The notes below the pieces were generated by a model, which had not been told where the DNA came from, made no database searches, and was given only the letters and a program-made list of their open reading frames with translations. Positions 1 to 59,560 of a stretch of DNA of 59,560 bases are shown in pieces. Each line of letters starts with the position of its first letter. Position 1 is the first letter of the stretch. The stretch covers positions 1-59,560 of the forward strand of contig JAJZQJ010000009.1 of the NCBI GenBank assembly GCA_021851895.1, given 5' to 3'. This DNA comes from a bacterium. GTDB lineage: Bacteria; Patescibacteriota; Minisyncoccia; Phycocordibacterales; UBA6899. Both the position numbers and the translations under genes were made by a program.

Positions 1-31
1 ACGAGACGGGAGTTCGATTCACCCTACCCGA
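1..31 (+). tRNA. tRNA 3' fragment (T-arm and acceptor 3' strand; truncated by window edge, isotype unknown)
   Basis: GGGAG-TTCGATT-CACCC T-arm followed by TACCCGA and a U-tailed hairpin; anticodon lies outside the window. Confidence 0.7.
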
Positions 32-74
32 ACAAAAAGAAAAACAGAGCGAAAGCCTCTGTTTTTCTTTTTGT
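32..74. terminator. Bidirectional intrinsic terminator after tRNA
   Basis: ACAAAAAGAAAAACAGAG-cgaaagc-CTCTGTTTTTCTTTTTGT inverted repeat. Confidence 0.8.
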
Positions 75-233
75 GCGGGTAGGGAGAATCGAACGGAAAG
101 GGGTCGGGAGAGGAGTACCTCTCCCGTCGAGGAGAGCAGGTGTTTCTTGTTTCACAAGAAACACCGTCGAGAACCGTGGGTTCTCGAAGAACTTTGCCGT
201 GCGGGTCCCTTTAGGGTGCGCGAGCAAAGTTCG
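75..233 (+). repeat. tRNA-associated structured element, copy A (antisense tRNA 3' end + conserved hairpins)
   Basis: Shares GGGTCGG..GAGGA..CCTCT.CCG..AGGAGAGCAG..CGTCGAGAACCGTGGGTTCTCGAA..CCCTTTAGGGTGCGCGAGC with 3520-3690 (-) and partly with 59188-59267. Confidence 0.85.
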
Positions 234-303
234 CGAGATATCTCCCCTTCGGATCCAAGCAAGGCTTGGATCCGAAGATTATTGAGTTGATAAATATGCA
301 TTT

Positions 304-714
304 TGTCCTTTATCCCCATTATCCACAGGTTTATTCACAGACATTATGTGGAAAAAACATCTCAGAACTAGCTAAGCAGGAAAATTTCCTTTAAATAAGC
401 CACCATACAATAAGACATTGTGGACAAGCCTGTGGATAACGTGGATAACTGTTCTTTAAAGACGCGAGAATAGTGTAAAAACACGGTTTCTTCAGGGATT
501 TTTGGCATTCATACACCACAGAGTGTCTTCATGAGATCGTGAAAGCGCCTTAATGTTCCCCTCCCCGCAAAATAATATGTCCTTTATCCCCAGTGTACAC
601 AGGTTTATCCACAGACAATATGTGGAGAAATTTGCTATTGCTATGAAATATGCTGAAAAAAGTACGTATCTTAGGGGTAAAATTCATGCAGGCTGTGGAA
701 AAGCATGTGGATAG
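304..714. promoter_or_regulatory. Probable replication origin (oriC), DnaA-box cluster
   Basis: Perfect boxes TTATCCACA 319-327 and 605-613, TGTGGATAA 431-439; near-consensus boxes at 310, 331, 347, 419, 440, 584, 621, 695, 706; ~50-bp imperfect direct repeat at 304 and 578; AT-rich. Confidence 0.75.
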
Positions 715-762
715 AGTGTATAAAGGACATCCTGAAACTTCCCCAGGCTTCTCCTTGAGCCA

Positions 763-1570
763 TGTTTCATGGGAAACATATTGGTATATACTAATTTTGA
801 TGCATGCTCGACTGAGAAATATTGATATCGGAACTATCGGTGAATCACTAGCTTCTCGCTACCTCAAGGAACATGGTTTTGATATTCTCTTAAGAAATTA
901 TGCAATTTCCGGTGTTGGAGAGATCGACATACTCGCATATAAGGATGAAACGTTGTATTTTGTCGAAGTCAAAACATCGGAAGATCGTGCTATTACGAGC
1001 GAATATCATGCAGTAGCGCATTTCGATGTCCAAAAAAAGAAAAACTCGCTCAAAACCATGAGAAAGTTCTGTTCATTAAAAGATGTGTCAATGAGGCGGA
1101 CACTAAGCTTACTTACCGTTTCATTTTCACGTGAAACATTGAAGGCACAGATACTGTTCGAGCCGTTTATTGTCATAGACACTATATGATAGCATTCTGT
1201 CCTGTTTCACGCGAAACATTGTATCGTACTGAATTCATGTGCAAGTTACGTAGGAACACCATATGTTACACGTGGAACTTTGCCATTCTTATGCTGGCTA
1301 AGCCCTTTGAGCATACTGTGCTGTCGTCACAATGTATATGTTTATGGGCGTAGTGTGTTTCACGTGAAATTTGCAACTATTCTATGTTTAATATGTTTTG
1401 TTCGCGTATCCTCCGATTGGCTAAGATCCATTGTCTTGCGGTATGTAACTTCGCGCCGGCTTTTACTGAATATGATCATATTGATTTGTTAATTGAAAAC
1501 CTCACGTTATTCCTTGGGTACACGCAGTTGTGTCAATTTTGTTGGGAGGGGGCGGATTTCACGTGAAACG
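763..1570. promoter_or_regulatory. parS site cluster (ParB/Spo0J binding)
   Basis: Near-matches to TGTTTCACGTGAAACA at 763-778, 1123-1138, 1203-1218, 1264-1279, 1356-1371, 1555-1570. Confidence 0.75.
800..1189 (+). CDS. yraN: YraN family (UPF0102) endonuclease-like protein
   Basis: GTIGESLASRYLKEHGFDILLRNY...GEIDILAYKDETLYFVEVKT; ATG 800 preferred over the upstream in-frame start inside oriC. Confidence 0.85.
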   Translation: MHARLRNIDIGTIGESLASRYLKEHGFDILLRNYAISGVGEIDILAYKDETLYFVEVKTSEDRAITSEYHAVAHFDVQKKKNSLKTMRKFCSLKDVSMRRTLSLLTVSFSRETLKAQILFEPFIVIDTI

Positions 1571-1695
1571 GTGTGGGAATATAGACTTGTAACTACGTAA
1601 CATTGTTTCTTTATCTGTTATTTAAATAATATGTCTTTTATTTTACTTCCATACTGAGCGTGGTATAATGGGTATGTCCTATAGAAAAGCTATAT

Positions 1696-2025
1696 ATGTC
1701 ACATCACCCATTACTCATTGTCAAGGCACGTCATGTCGTTAGGCATTCGCATCTTTCGAATGTTGATAAGCAGCTTATGTACGAGCGCATCCCTTTTCTT
1801 GACCTTGGAATGTTGGCACTTTTCATTGATTCTGCTGAGGAAAATCCGTTTGCTCTCGATGCGATCGTTTCAAGCATGAAGAAAAAGCTTGATGCGCGCG
1901 GCAATCTCCATCGGCTCCACGAAATACTCGAGACCGAGGCAAAGGAGATCGAGGCAAGGGACAGCGAAGATACAGATGAGACAAAGGTTGAAAGTGAAGA
2001 TGAGTCTAAGCTTGTAGCACACTAA
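1696..2025 (+). CDS. Hypothetical protein
   Basis: 109-aa ORF downstream of TGGTATAAT; acidic C-terminus. Confidence 0.65.
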   Translation: MSHHPLLIVKARHVVRHSHLSNVDKQLMYERIPFLDLGMLALFIDSAEENPFALDAIVSSMKKKLDARGNLHRLHEILETEAKEIEARDSEDTDETKVESEDESKLVAH

Positions 2026-2036
2026 CTAATAGCACC

Positions 2037-3005
2037 ATGAGAGAGCAATTTCACAAACCACAAGATGAGTTTGTCGCCGCTTACGGTGGAGACGAGGGTG
2101 TAGCGTTTGAGCCGACTGCGCCGCAGGGGGAGCAGGAGGGCGGTTATGAAGGAGAGGTGGGTGGCAAAGAATCAGAGGCTCAAGCGTTTCTTGAGCGCCA
2201 TTCAAGCGAGGAGCGCAAATTGGCTGAAGATATAGTCGGTGCCATAGAGGGTATTTCGAATCAACTTGAGTCGGAACATATAGTCTCTCGTGAGATGGCG
2301 GCCGAGTCTATGATCGCAACGGCATTTGCTGCTGCGCCTACTTCGGGAGTAGAGGATGGCGAGACTTCTTTGTGGAAGTCTGTATTGCGCGGCGCATCAT
2401 TGGGTGCTCGTAATGCGGTAAAAGCCGTTGCGCTCACTTCGATGATGTCTGCTTCGCCAGCTTTTGCTCAGGATTATATGCATCCGAGCCCCCAGATTCA
2501 AAAGAAAGTCGATTATCTTTTTGGAAAGAACATATTCGAGCGATTTGCAAATAAACGCGCATCATATAAGGAAGCATATACGCAGCTTGAAATGCATAAG
2601 GAGGAGGTACAGCATCGAATCGACGAGCTGAATGATCCTCGCCCGAGAAGCACTGCGGAGGAGGCACACATCAAACGTGTTGAAGCCGATAGGGATGCGA
2701 AACTTGCCGCGCTGAGAGTGGAGCGCACTTTAGAGAAGGCAGCATTTGAAGATCTTCATACGAACGATCCGACAGAGCGCGCCGAATATGATGCGAGGAT
2801 CGCTGCAATCGCTGCGCGTGAGGCAAGGGTCGTCGAAGATTGTGAGGCGCTACTTCTTGCAGAACATCGCAAGGCTGCCCCTCAGCAAGAGCTTCAAGAT
2901 CTCTATCGTGAGATCGTGCGCATTGAGAGGGAAGAGAACGAACTTGTCCGAAGGTTTTATGCACTGAAGCGTAGTGCTTATGGTTCGTACTGGTCTCGTT
3001 GGTGA
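2037..3005 (+). CDS. Hypothetical coiled-coil protein
   Basis: 322-aa ORF, acidic N-terminus, internal hydrophobic segment, helical C-terminus; followed by terminator hairpin. Confidence 0.7.
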   Translation: MREQFHKPQDEFVAAYGGDEGVAFEPTAPQGEQEGGYEGEVGGKESEAQAFLERHSSEERKLAEDIVGAIEGISNQLESEHIVSREMAAESMIATAFAAAPTSGVEDGETSLWKSVLRGASLGARNAVKAVALTSMMSASPAFAQDYMHPSPQIQKKVDYLFGKNIFERFANKRASYKEAYTQLEMHKEEVQHRIDELNDPRPRSTAEEAHIKRVEADRDAKLAALRVERTLEKAAFEDLHTNDPTERAEYDARIAAIAAREARVVEDCEALLLAEHRKAAPQQELQDLYREIVRIEREENELVRRFYALKRSAYGSYWSRW

Positions 3006-3049
3006 TGAGTAATAAAAAATAACAGAGCAATCGTGCTCTGTTATTTTTT

Positions 3050-3385
3050 TTATTTTTCATCGTCGGTATATTCAAGAAAAAGTCTTTCTTCGAATCCTCC
3101 GCGTTTCTCTCGCTTCGATCGCTTCTTCTCCATGAGAGCATTCGTGTCAATGTGATGATGCGCAACGATCGCATCTACGATCTCAAGTAGATCAGAGATC
3201 TCGTTGATCATGTCGTCATTCGATTTTGCTTCGAGCAACTCCATTGCCTCTTCGACGATCTTTTGCTTAAGCGCGAGGGCGAATTGTTCATCACTCAGTA
3301 CAGAGATCTTTGGTGTCGCATTGTCTGCGATGATGATATCAGGTATTTTGTCTCTGATGAGTTTATTGTAGGTGATGCGTGCCAT
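3050..3385 (-). CDS. MazG-like nucleoside triphosphate pyrophosphohydrolase (phosphoribosyl-ATP pyrophosphohydrolase-like family)
   Basis: YNKLIRDKIPDII...KIVEEAMEL...EISDLLE...KREKRGGF. Confidence 0.85.
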   Translation of the reverse strand: MARITYNKLIRDKIPDIIIADNATPKISVLSDEQFALALKQKIVEEAMELLEAKSNDDMINEISDLLEIVDAIVAHHHIDTNALMEKKRSKREKRGGFEERLFLEYTDDEK

Positions 3386-3519
3386 GAGATCATTGTAACA
3401 TGGAGAGAGGGAAGGTGAGTGCATCTTAGATATAAAAATTTGATAGCGTAAAAACAATTCCGGGAAATCGAGCAAACATTTGAACGCGCACTCCTGAGGA
3501 GCTCATTCAAAAAAGAAGA

Positions 3520-3690
3520 GCCGGGAAATCGAACAACCTTCGGCTCGCGCACCCTAAAGGGTCCCGCGCGGTCGAAGGTTTCGAGAACCCACGGTTCTCG
3601 ACGCTCGAGGACTCGCTGCTCTCCTTCACGGAAGAGGACGGTGTCCTCTTCCGACCCATCTCCTGTTCGAATCCCGGCACGCCGACAAAA
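3520..3690 (-). repeat. tRNA-associated structured element, copy B
   Basis: Bounded by GCCGGGAAATCGAACA (3520-3535) and TGTTCGAATCCCGGC (3664-3678); same core as copy A. Confidence 0.85.
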
Positions 3691-3727
3691 AAAGAAAAAC
3701 CTCTTTGCAGAGGTTTTTCTTTTTTTG

Positions 3728-3800
3728 TCGGGGCGCCGGGATTCGAACCCGGAGTCATCCGCTCCCAAAGCGGACATGTTAGCCGTTACACCACGCCCCG
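3728..3800 (-). tRNA. tRNA-Pro(TGG)
   Basis: Reverse complement CGGGGCGTGGTGTAACGGCTAACATGTCCGCTTTGGGAGCGGATGACTCCGGGTTCGAATCCCGGCGCCCCGA folds as a cloverleaf; CCA not encoded. Confidence 0.95.
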
Positions 3801-3953
3801 AATTTTCGAGACCACTTCTGGTCGCGTTTTTGCATAGTAGCATAGTTTCCAAAAAATGCCAGCCCTCCCAAGTTTGCTTGTGCCCATTTTGAAATGCAGT
3901 ACTATTGAGTCATACTCCATGAACTCAAGTGAGCGACATGGAACACAAATATC

Positions 3954-4583
3954 ATGAACGATGTACAGAGAAAAAAGCATGCCGCAGATGTCCTGCGAAA
4001 GCTCAAGAAACTATTTCCGCATGCAAGGATGTTTTTGAATTACACGACCCCTTTTGAACTTCTTGTCGCAGTGATGCTCTCTGCGCAGTGTACTGATAAG
4101 AAGGTGAATGAGGTGACGCCGGAGCTCTTTCGCCGATTTAAGACCATAGATGATTATGCGCAAGCACCAATACGAGAACTTGAGCGACTCGTCTATCAAA
4201 CCGGTTTTTATCGAGCGAAGGCGAAGCATATAAAAGAGGCAGCTATCGTGATAAGGGACGAATATGGAGGAGTGCTCCCAAGGACAATGCGCGAGATGGT
4301 TTCCATTCCTGGTGTTGGAAGGAAGACCGCGAACGTCGTACTCGGAAATGCATACGGAGTAAGTGAGGGCATAGCGGTCGATACGCATGTGCGACGGCTT
4401 GCAGGTGTTCTCGGACTCTCAAAGGAAAAGGCCATCCCTGCGATCGAGCGTGACCTTATGAAACTTTTCCCAAAGAAAGAGTGGTTCAGGCTGACGTATT
4501 ATCTTATCGAGTACGGTAGAAATTATTGCCCTGCAAAAAAGCATGATCATTCGAAGTGCCCACTAGGGCATAGTGCCAGCTAA
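3954..4583 (+). CDS. nth: Endonuclease III
   Basis: PFELLVAVMLSAQCTD, HhH motif IPGVGRKTANVVL, VDTHV. Confidence 0.95.
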   Translation: MNDVQRKKHAADVLRKLKKLFPHARMFLNYTTPFELLVAVMLSAQCTDKKVNEVTPELFRRFKTIDDYAQAPIRELERLVYQTGFYRAKAKHIKEAAIVIRDEYGGVLPRTMREMVSIPGVGRKTANVVLGNAYGVSEGIAVDTHVRRLAGVLGLSKEKAIPAIERDLMKLFPKKEWFRLTYYLIEYGRNYCPAKKHDHSKCPLGHSAS

Positions 4584-4856
4584 TGCAATTAAATTGCATA
4601 TGTGAGCAATTATCGTTTTACTGTTTCAGGTAAATGCGGTTTGTGAAACAAGTTTTACAGAGAAAAAACACGATATTTTGAAAATAAAATCACTTAACAC
4701 TCAAATTTAGAAGAAATTTTCAGCAGAAATGTGTTGTGAAACATATCTGGGGCGCTGTGGCGGGGTGTACAATGTTTCACGAGAGACTAGTCACTTATAA
4801 AAAATAGGAGAAATAGAAAAACGCGAGCATGCTCGCGTTTTCAATATGATGATTCG

Positions 4857-5237
4857 CTACTGCTGGCGACTTAAGATCTGGTCGCCTTTGCGGTCGAGAA
4901 TACCCTTGAAAATGTTCTCTTTCTGGAGCCCCATGAATATAATAATGGGAATGATGACTTGCCTCGACTGCGGATGGGTATAGATGTAATTCAACCCGCT
5001 GCAAAGAGGGCACTTTATCGAGCACGTCGGTAGCTCTGACGGATGCCAGCAGTCAACGAGGTTGCCCGTCTTCGAGCTGTGCCCATAGTGGTCTTGGATG
5101 AATTCCGAGTTGCCGAGCGAGAAGTCACTGAGACAGTGTGTACACATGATCATGGTCTCGCGCGCCCGCTTGAGTTTCTCTTCTGGAGTAATCGTGTCGC
5201 GCGCATTTTCGCGCGAGTTATCGAGCTGAGTATCCAT
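4857..5237 (-). CDS. Hypothetical protein, possible Zn-ribbon
   Basis: Two CxxC pairs (CTHC, CPLC); start uncertain. Confidence 0.5.
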   Translation of the reverse strand: MDTQLDNSRENARDTITPEEKLKRARETMIMCTHCLSDFSLGNSEFIQDHYGHSSKTGNLVDCWHPSELPTCSIKCPLCSGLNYIYTHPQSRQVIIPIIIFMGLQKENIFKGILDRKGDQILSRQQ

Positions 5238-5369
5238 TTCAATCCTTATTGAGCAATATATCTGAAACGAAACTAACATACTGAACGGGAGCGTCAATAA
5301 AATCATCCATTGCAAAATTCGTGATTTTTGTTAGTATGGCTTTACTCTCATCATCGATCGAGCATTCAT

Positions 5370-5440
5370 GCGGGTGTAGTTTAGTGGTAAAACTCCTGCC
5401 TTCCAAGCAGGTGTCGGGGGTTCGATTCCCCCTGCCCGCA
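5370..5440 (+). tRNA. tRNA-Gly(TCC)
   Basis: GCGGGTGTAGTTTAGTGGTAAAACTCCTGCCTTCCAAGCAGGTGTCGGGGGTTCGATTCCCCCTGCCCGCA cloverleaf. Confidence 0.95.
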
Positions 5441-5480
5441 CAAAGTCAAAAAATCTGCGTAAGCAGATTTTTTGTTACTT

Positions 5481-5790
5481 GTACGAGGCAGGGGGAATCG
5501 AACCGGCCACAGACGGGCACCCTCGCTCGCGCGTCTCCGCGCAGCGCAGGGTCGTCGAAGCGGGCTCGCGAGCACTTTGTTTTCTGTCGCGCGAAGCGCG
5601 TCAGAAAACTTAGTGACTCGTGAGTTCGATTCCTGTTTCTTGTTCTGTGCGCGAAGCGCTCAAATTGATCAGAGCTCAGTTCATGACAATTCTTGCCGTG
5701 AGCACTTAGTCGCAGCAAGATGAAGCTGACGCGAAACTTAGAAACTCGTGACCGATTCCTCAAATCCGATTTAGCGTGCGAAGCACTCAA
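5481..5790 (+). repeat. tRNA-Gly-associated element (antisense tRNA 3' end, GCGAAGC mini-hairpins, internal degenerate tandem unit)
   Basis: GGCAGGGGGAATCGAACC 5487-5504 is antisense to the tRNA; GTTCGATTCC 5624-5633; unit GAGCACTT..AAACTTAG..ACTCGTGA..CGATTCCT at 5570-5634 and 5700-5760. Confidence 0.7.
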
Positions 5791-59020: not shown

Positions 59021-59187
59021 TTACCAAGAGCGCGAACGCGTTGTTTGCTTCATCCATTTTTGTTCCACAGTATGTTTGCGGCACTGGCCTTTTTCTCGTG
59101 ATCGTCTGCTTTTCGCTTTCGCGGTACCATTGTACCGCTTCAAGCTCCAAAGCTAGACGCTGACATTATATCGTCATCGATAAAATA

Positions 59188-59267
59188 GAAAGGGGTCGGG
59201 AAAACAACTGTTTTCCCGCGAAGGAAGGCAGCGAGTCTTCGAGCGTCGGAAAACCGTGGGTTTTCGA
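59188..59267 (+). repeat. Structured element, copy C (partial, no adjacent tRNA)
   Basis: GAAAGGGGTCGGGAAAACAACTGTTTTCCCG..GCAGCGAGTCTTCGAGCGTCGGAAAACCGTGGGTTTTCGA matches copies A and B with compensatory changes. Confidence 0.8.
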
Positions 59268-59406
59268 GGAGTAAATATTTCTCAGTGTTTCATTGTGTGG
59301 GGTATGTGAAATGCAAATTGATTCCTTCGCTGTTTCATGGTGTTCATTACCTGACTGCGAAAAATCCAAAACGAAAGTATGGGATCGGCTATGCTATACT
59401 TTTGTC

Positions 59407-59560
59407 ATGAAGTTTTTTTCTCGTCGAGGTTTCACATTGATCGAGCTGCTCGTCGTTATTGCGATCATTGCGTTGCTCTCGAGTGTCATATTGTCAGTGA
59501 TGACCTCTGCGCGCGTGAAGTCTCGCGATGCCGCGCGTCTTGCGAACGCGCATCAGTTGA
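59407..59560 (+). CDS. Type IV pilin (5' part, truncated by window edge)
   Basis: MKFFSRRG|FTLIELLVVIAIIALLSSVIL..AR.KSRDAAR. Confidence 0.9.
   Translation, partial: MKFFSRRGFTLIELLVVIAIIALLSSVILSVMTSARVKSRDAARLANAHQL

Follow-up and report, generated by a model that had tools for sequence, protein, structure and literature searches.

Earlier literature on the tRNA-linked repeats (TLRs) of E. coli reportedly includes the work of Egan and Landy (1978) and of Rudd (1999). In a published account, TLRs have been known since 1978, number 22, spread over ten loci downstream of tRNA or rRNA genes, and each end in 18-19 bp of the 3' end of the upstream gene; most are described there as having no known function (PMC8144298). 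According to the same account, rrA, rrB and rrF lie behind 5S rRNA, between two terminators, and are processed products of transcriptional read-through; the authors propose that the tail copy of a TLR directs cleavage by RNase E (PMC8144298). The rttR repeat is also treated in a preprint (10.1101/2024.07.17.603846). By analogy of layout, TLRs (RtT/rttR of the tyrT-tyrV operon and rrA/B/F) appear to be the closest known kind to the modules described below, which are not members of the RtT family. No Rfam 15 family, RF00391 (RtT) included, matched window positions 1-4000 (E<=10) or six other loci (E<=0.01), and a control search with RF00391 on the E. coli tyrT locus gave 4 matches of 133-138 bits. 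Literature searches, together with Rfam 15, returned no description of these tRNA-trailing modules of Patescibacteria.

The window is the whole 59.6-kb contig C16 of a 1.10-Mb genome (G000; 16 contigs, 99.7% complete). An initial annotation had described in it a dispersed repeat in three copies, here A, B and C. All three exist at the places given for them, and the hairpins listed for them read as described; copy B (3520-3663) lies on the minus strand relative to copies A and C. The repeat is thus real and structured, and its description as unannotated agrees with the Rfam result, but the annotation had missed the linkage to tRNA genes, the copies of tRNA tails and the existence of other core types. 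The three copies belong to what we call type 1. Full type-1 copies stand in the tRNA-sense orientation and follow a fixed order: the tRNA gene, a short spacer holding a symmetric A-tract/GC-hairpin/T-tract, an antisense arm (X'), a core, and a sense arm (X). X' is the reverse complement of the last ~20 nt of the tRNA, that is, of the T loop, the 3' strand of the T stem and the 3' strand of the acceptor stem. X is a sense repeat of the tRNA tail, usually shorter than X' and often partial. The type-1 core is conserved, measures ~150 nt and consists of four helices. At least four core types, this one included, occur behind the tRNA genes of G000 (types 1, 2, 2b and 3, plus a type without X'), all defined by our own motif typing.

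The E. coli TLRs and the G000 modules share several properties. Both immediately follow a tRNA or rRNA gene and share its orientation, with copy C as an exception, and both can be chained. TLRs end in a copy of the 3' end of the upstream gene, and the G000 modules likewise, though here the copy is often partial. In the K-12 tyrT locus each 178-bp rttR unit ends in the tail and, like the G000 modules, holds an inverted piece of it, which in rttR is short (10 nt). The layout of rrB is matched by the 5S rRNA locus of G000 (C6:40648-41010), where, behind the gene, two hairpins enclose ~170 nt of hairpin-rich sequence and then a 24-nt copy of tail and trailer; no inverted tail copy is present at this locus. 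The G000 modules differ from the TLRs in that their best-kept arm is the antisense copy (~20 nt) and not the sense copy, in that a hairpin separates the tRNA from the module, and in that their cores are larger, fall into several types and form strongly covarying four-helix folds. Occupancy is also near-universal in this 1.1-Mb genome. ARAGORN predicts 46 tRNAs, of which 44 have enough downstream sequence to be testable, and an antisense arm lies at +20 to +98 behind 33 of these 44. In two further tRNAs the best inverted tail copy lies at about +250 to +266. At the tmRNA locus (C6:71552-71800), the gene is trailed in turn by a hairpin, 21 nt antisense to the tail of the tmRNA itself, a core of type 3 and a tail copy in sense. 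Hairpins between tail and X' recur in near-identical form at different tRNAs.

The features of the window are given here one per line, with the scores of a covariance model of the type-1 core (R1) for the three copies.

1 to 33, plus strand: 3' end of the upstream tRNA-Gly(GCC), comprising T loop, T stem and acceptor strand, cut by the contig start
34 to 72, plus strand: symmetric A-tract / GC hairpin / T-tract, terminator-like, from the tRNA tail to the antisense arm (read directly)
73 to 94, plus strand: X' of copy A, antisense to the tRNA-Gly(GCC) tail, 22/22 nt complementary
89 to 240, plus strand: copy A, type-1 core (R1 153.2 bits, E 1.5e-43)
235 to 247, plus strand: X of copy A, partial sense tail with 9 nt matched, all from the T stem, which pairs with part of X'
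247 to 277, plus strand: hairpin after copy A with no clear T run (read directly)
3461 to 3519, minus strand: second module of copy B, made of last stem and tail copy, degenerate here but intact in the ortholog of genome G002
3520 to 3534, minus strand: X of copy B, partial sense tail, 13/14 aligned
3527 to 3670, minus strand: copy B, type-1 core with a short hp2 (R1 115.5 bits, E 2.2e-32)
3666 to 3688, minus strand: X' of copy B, antisense to the tRNA-Pro tail, 20/22
3689 to 3726, minus strand: symmetric A/T-tract hairpin between tRNA-Pro and X'; the palindrome gives spurious miRNA-type matches
3727 to 3800, minus strand: tRNA-Pro(UGG), the gene trailed by copy B
59181 to 59294, plus strand: copy C, truncated type-1 core with hp1, a short hp2 and hp3 (R1 50.9 bits, E 3.2e-13)

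The tRNA gene behind which copy A stands is completed by another contig. Contig C1, read in reverse, carries the whole tRNA-Gly(GCC) and overlaps the start of the window: C1:14-48 is identical to window 60-94, and window 1-33 differs from the C1 copy at 2 nt. Genomes G002, from another species of the same genus (98% completeness), and G001 both carry a tRNA-Gly(gcc) at the syntenic place. G002 is syntenic with window 1-5600, and copies A and B are present in it at orthologous places. The core of copy A is composed of hp1, hp2, hp3, whose apex holds the conserved ACCGUGGGU, and a long last stem in two parts. The hairpin at 247-277 could be the module's own 3' hairpin. A consensus scan listed neither the hairpin at 3689-3726 nor the one at 34-72; in the latter the stem extension probably absorbs the T run. 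Copy B differs from its G002 ortholog by 8 two-sided compensatory pair changes. A sigma-70 promoter scan found 6 sites against 5.9 expected, none positioned to drive copy A or B. An extended -10 motif precedes tRNA-Pro in three genomes; as this motif occurs in just 6 of 45 regions upstream of tRNAs and in 1 of 42 regions downstream of them, the promoter test is too weak to use.

Copy C comprises the 5' two-thirds of the type-1 core, without end arms and without the last stem, and sits 194 nt behind rpsG instead of behind a tRNA. A counterpart is present at 0 of 11 rpsG loci of relatives. The closest stretch in G000 is the tRNA-Pro(cgg) copy on contig C5. After copy C, at window 59293-59560 (plus strand), a gene begins with a type IV prepilin-like N-terminus, in the place where fusA is expected after rpsL-rpsG.

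BLAST of the window copies against G000 found related stretches on 11 further contigs, many of them at contig ends. A covariance model was built on 11 full genome copies, taken from the left to the right junction; RNAalifold on their MAFFT alignment supplied a structure of four helices, and the resulting R1 spans 152 positions with 37 pairs. Searching G000 with R1 gave 26 matches, 12 of them above 112 bits. Type-1 copies are mutually ~70-88% alike.

Selection on secondary structure, which the initial annotation had read from the three copies, is confirmed by strong covariation both in an alignment of 65 sequences and in the independent seed alignment of 11 copies. The larger alignment consists of the distinct R1 matches from G000 and its relatives, fitted to the model's own structure. 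Its 1725 cells are 96.9% paired, compared with 79.3% in shuffles, a figure that the fit to the model inflates somewhat and whose trend recurs in the independent 11-copy seed run. Two-sided changes affect 33 of the 37 pairs and amount to 355 cells, compared with 104 after shuffling. On no covariation measure did any of 500 shuffles attain the observed value, and slid partners were 35-53% paired. In the 11 seed copies aligned with MAFFT and folded with RNAalifold, two-sided changes occur in 20/37 pairs. Comparison of species gives the same kind of evidence. Seven orthologous type-1 pairs of G000 and G002 provide 239 comparable base pairs (20 more are gapped), of which 194 are unchanged, 30 have changed on both sides with pairing kept, 5 have changed on one side and 10 are broken. 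The pairing is also strand-biased. GU and UG together account for 104 cells and AC and CA for 26 (about four to one), and one G·U is kept in 11/11 seed copies. This excess of G·U over A·C indicates that the folded strand is the tRNA-sense strand. The bias fits RNA, but a strand-specific hairpin of single-stranded DNA is expected to give the same bias.

Linkage of type 1 to tRNA genes is seen throughout G000. Of its 26 type-1 matches, 14 follow a tRNA on the same strand at a distance of 38-296 nt, 2 more do so at 583 and 955 nt, 7 (copy A among them) fall within 400 nt of a contig start, and 3, including copy C, have no tRNA in reach. X' is tied to the 3' strand of the tRNA. Of 22 informative positions in X', 18 agree with the complement of that strand and 1 with the 5' strand of the tRNA itself; the rows listed for this count include two loci without a module, and when both are excluded 17/20 follow the 3'-strand complement. 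A derivation of X' from the tRNA's own 5' strand, as a remnant of the top half of a tRNA, was rejected, since 1 of the 22 informative positions fits it. The two arms are unequally preserved. Over 22 full type-1 units from G000 and G002, the median tail match is 20.5/22 for X' and 12.5/22 for X, and the better tail copy is X' in 15 units and X in 3. X matches at least 18 of 22 tail bases in 9 of these units (9 and 13 bases in window copies A and B); it is often too short to rebuild an acceptor stem, so a full tRNA-like end is not general.

Further modules in G000 and its relatives show how varied the trailing elements are. Within the window, tRNA-Gly(UCC) (5370-5441) is followed at 5442-5640 (plus strand) by a hairpin, an antisense arm and a 'type 2b'-like core; the same tRNA-Gly(UCC) in G002 is followed by a type-3 core. 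At tRNA-Pro(GGG) (G000:C13:51781-51835) the palindrome is 'naked': tail, hairpin and a 27-nt inverted tail copy that extends into the 5' strand of the T stem, with no core and no sense copy. tRNA-Arg(cct) is followed by a AAGAACGCC...GGCGTTCTT hairpin similar to that of the 5S locus, tRNA-Ile(gat) by a direct tail copy with no inverted one, and the RNase P RNA gene of G000 has nothing comparable behind it. Some type-1 copies carry an extra module of ~115 nt in the hp3 apex, just after ACCGUGGGU. In G000 it is found at C12:79510-79644, C13:1-130, C14:17110-17246, C8:71780-71950 and C2:290-400, and it is conserved in G002 (C3 near 46500). Three G000 contigs break inside it, and the end of C12 and the start of C13 form one element with this insert. 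In positions 1-620 of C2, a sub-module of hp3, last stem and tail copy is repeated four to five times in tandem; the array probably trails the tRNA-Arg(tct) at the end of C15. Upstream of tRNA-Pro(UGG), G001 (C4:2100-2290) and G002 (C3) carry partial duplicates of the tRNA 5' half; the G001 duplicate is a ~100-nt unit repeated twice. These may be 5'-side counterparts of the tail modules.

Type 1 occurs in 24 of 61 genomes among order-level relatives and in 10 of 151 genomes of an even phylum sample (G000 is counted in both), and G002 has 23 matches. The core that occupies a given site changes between species. By our own typing, the first module at tRNA loci shared by G000 and G002 is of the same type at 19 of 41 and of a different type at 22 of 41. 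Between the two genomes, tail, hairpin and X' share 97-98% identity at tRNA-Ala(tgc) and tRNA-Asp(gtc). The resemblance breaks off directly behind TTGAA, a sequence derived from the T loop, and returns in a 3' domain common to both. Whole units also differ in presence. The interval from tRNA-Thr(ggt) to tRNA-Thr(cgt) contains a type-1 unit in G000 but not in G002; this unit is flanked by a 27-nt direct repeat made of the tail plus 5 nt. At tRNA-Arg(gcg) G000 has an extra type-3 unit ahead of the type-1 unit. The tRNA-Pro(tgg) of G001 is followed by the hairpin alone, without X' or module, at a place where downstream synteny is lost, and the tRNA-Gln(ttg) site is filled in G002 and empty in G000, with downstream synteny absent. 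In these filled and empty differences, gain is not distinguishable from loss by recombination between direct tail copies.

We lean, with moderate confidence, to the view that the window copies are type-1 members of a family of tRNA-linked modules whose read-through RNA is processed in the manner of a tRNA and whose cores have spread as cassettes without a transposase. By analogy with the E. coli TLRs, transcription would read through the hairpin behind the tRNA into the module. X' and X would then close the module into a helix that repeats the T-stem and acceptor sequence of the tRNA, and the tail copy could let tRNA end-processing enzymes trim and release a stable small RNA. At the DNA level, cores would act as exchangeable cassettes. 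They would spread by recombination, or by template switching during replication, at the T-loop sequence, which is nearly palindromic and forms the boundary of each core. X' would arise from folding back at the hairpin, and X from the return at the T loop. Given that G000 has no reverse transcriptase match and one tyrosine recombinase, and that Y1 transposase genes show no clear link to type 1 across 61 genomes, we infer exchange by template switching or recombination and not by a dedicated transposase. Template switching predicts a copy of the trailer of that tRNA behind X. Such a trailer copy (at least 12 of 20 nt) is clear in 3 of 16 copies, compared with 4.5% in controls, which agrees weakly with the prediction. 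A retroelement origin, with X' as a tRNA-primed PBS-like sequence, was rejected; PF00078 has 0 matches in G000.

The same arms allow another account, which we consider unlikely, namely that the element is an anti-tail riboregulator and that the selected pairing is that of X' with the real tRNA tail and not with X. In a read-through RNA, X' is predicted to zip over the spacer and the 3' strands of the acceptor and T stems into a duplex of ~45 bp. That duplex would mark or cut read-through precursors, for example through a double-strand RNase, or would tune tRNA 3' maturation, and X would serve as a competitor able to release the tRNA. A nearly perfect X' beside a decayed X fits this account, as do the exact tracking of the tRNA 3' strand by X', the extension of the palindrome over the spacer, and, for types 2 and 3, a palindrome that is regularly broken exactly where the discriminator end lies. 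RNAfold points in the same direction: in five tRNA-to-X transcripts, 21-22 of the 22 tail bases pair with X' in a long hairpin, and this fold lies 15-27 kcal/mol below a cloverleaf with a separately folded module, as an equilibrium prediction that ignores co-transcriptional folding and base modifications. The predicted preference fits control through the tail at least as well as it fits a processed module. However, the tRNA folds co-transcriptionally before X' is made, the need for an elaborate and conserved core of 150 nt is left unexplained, and a perfect palindrome can persist through a DNA-level bias (template switching in quasi-palindromes) with no function in RNA.

The initial annotation had offered either an ncRNA or a REP/MITE-like element mobilised as single-stranded DNA. 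The ncRNA alternative is supported in its structure, by covariation, and a function as a processed RNA is suggested by analogy; the REP/MITE alternative is not supported in the form given, and the ends of the element vary with the neighbouring tRNA. We regard it as improbable that the copies are selfish repeats moved as single-stranded DNA by a Y1 (IS200/RAYT-type) transposase. The hairpins would then form in DNA, on the non-template strand, downstream of genes with high transcription. Like REP/REPIN-RAYT elements and MITEs, the modules are short, gene-less, hairpin-forming intergenic repeats, often behind genes, in a genome with a Y1_Tnp gene (C4:41048-41380, 253-aa frame). Many copies lie at contig ends, the partial copy C stands behind rpsG and not behind a tRNA, modules turn over between species, and the strand-biased G·T pairs would suit single-stranded DNA as well. 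Unlike in those systems, there are no conserved terminal repeats, the ends differing from copy to copy with the tail of the adjacent tRNA, and there is no fixed target duplication. Y1 genes are present in 47 of 61 relatives, but in 21 of 24 type-1-positive and 26 of 37 type-1-negative genomes, which gives no clear link, and G002 has no Y1 match for all its type-1 copies. The copies, moreover, are old and diverged, and they have been kept at orthologous sites with compensatory changes; the Y1 gene of G000 is not flanked by a type-1 repeat. In that region (G000:C4:40930-41760), the Y1 gene has short GGGGTCxGACCCC hairpins, each with a T run, on its two sides. Far less credible still is that the units are scars of miniature integrative elements, inserted at tRNA 3' ends by a tyrosine integrase with the tail repeats as attL and attR. 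As with tRNA-targeting integrative elements, a direct repeat of the segment from T loop to 3' end lies on both sides of the insert, in the region that integrases favour, and tRNA-Thr(ggt) has its 27-nt direct repeat. Yet the inserts measure 150-200 nt and carry no integrase gene, the sole tyrosine recombinase of G000 is at C1:5626-6147, and integration of a circle at more than 30 different tRNAs would require a tail fitted to each of them. Dozens of tRNA targets and an added inverted tail copy set the modules apart from such elements, and X' would have no place in the scheme.

For tRNA-linked elements, compensatory evolution and retention at orthologous sites argue for functional RNA over debris. 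Modules of this kind stand behind most tRNA genes, the tmRNA and the 5S rRNA of a streamlined 1.1-Mb genome, and the analysis yields covariance-grade alignments for new RNA families absent from Rfam. The antisense arm, matched to its target, is a testable handle on what tRNA-linked repeats do, and the turnover of cores at the T-loop junction is a candidate route of spreading without a transposase. It is a bold and rather doubtful proposition that nearly every stable-RNA gene carries a programmable, per-tRNA anti-tail control RNA whose cores spread without a transposase at the T loop. If it is true, an arm of ~20 nt, matched to the 3' end of its tRNA, would invade the acceptor arm and the T arm in read-through precursors and would decide what becomes of them, and the organism would possess a per-tRNA control of quality or dosage, carried out by a conserved four-helix core.
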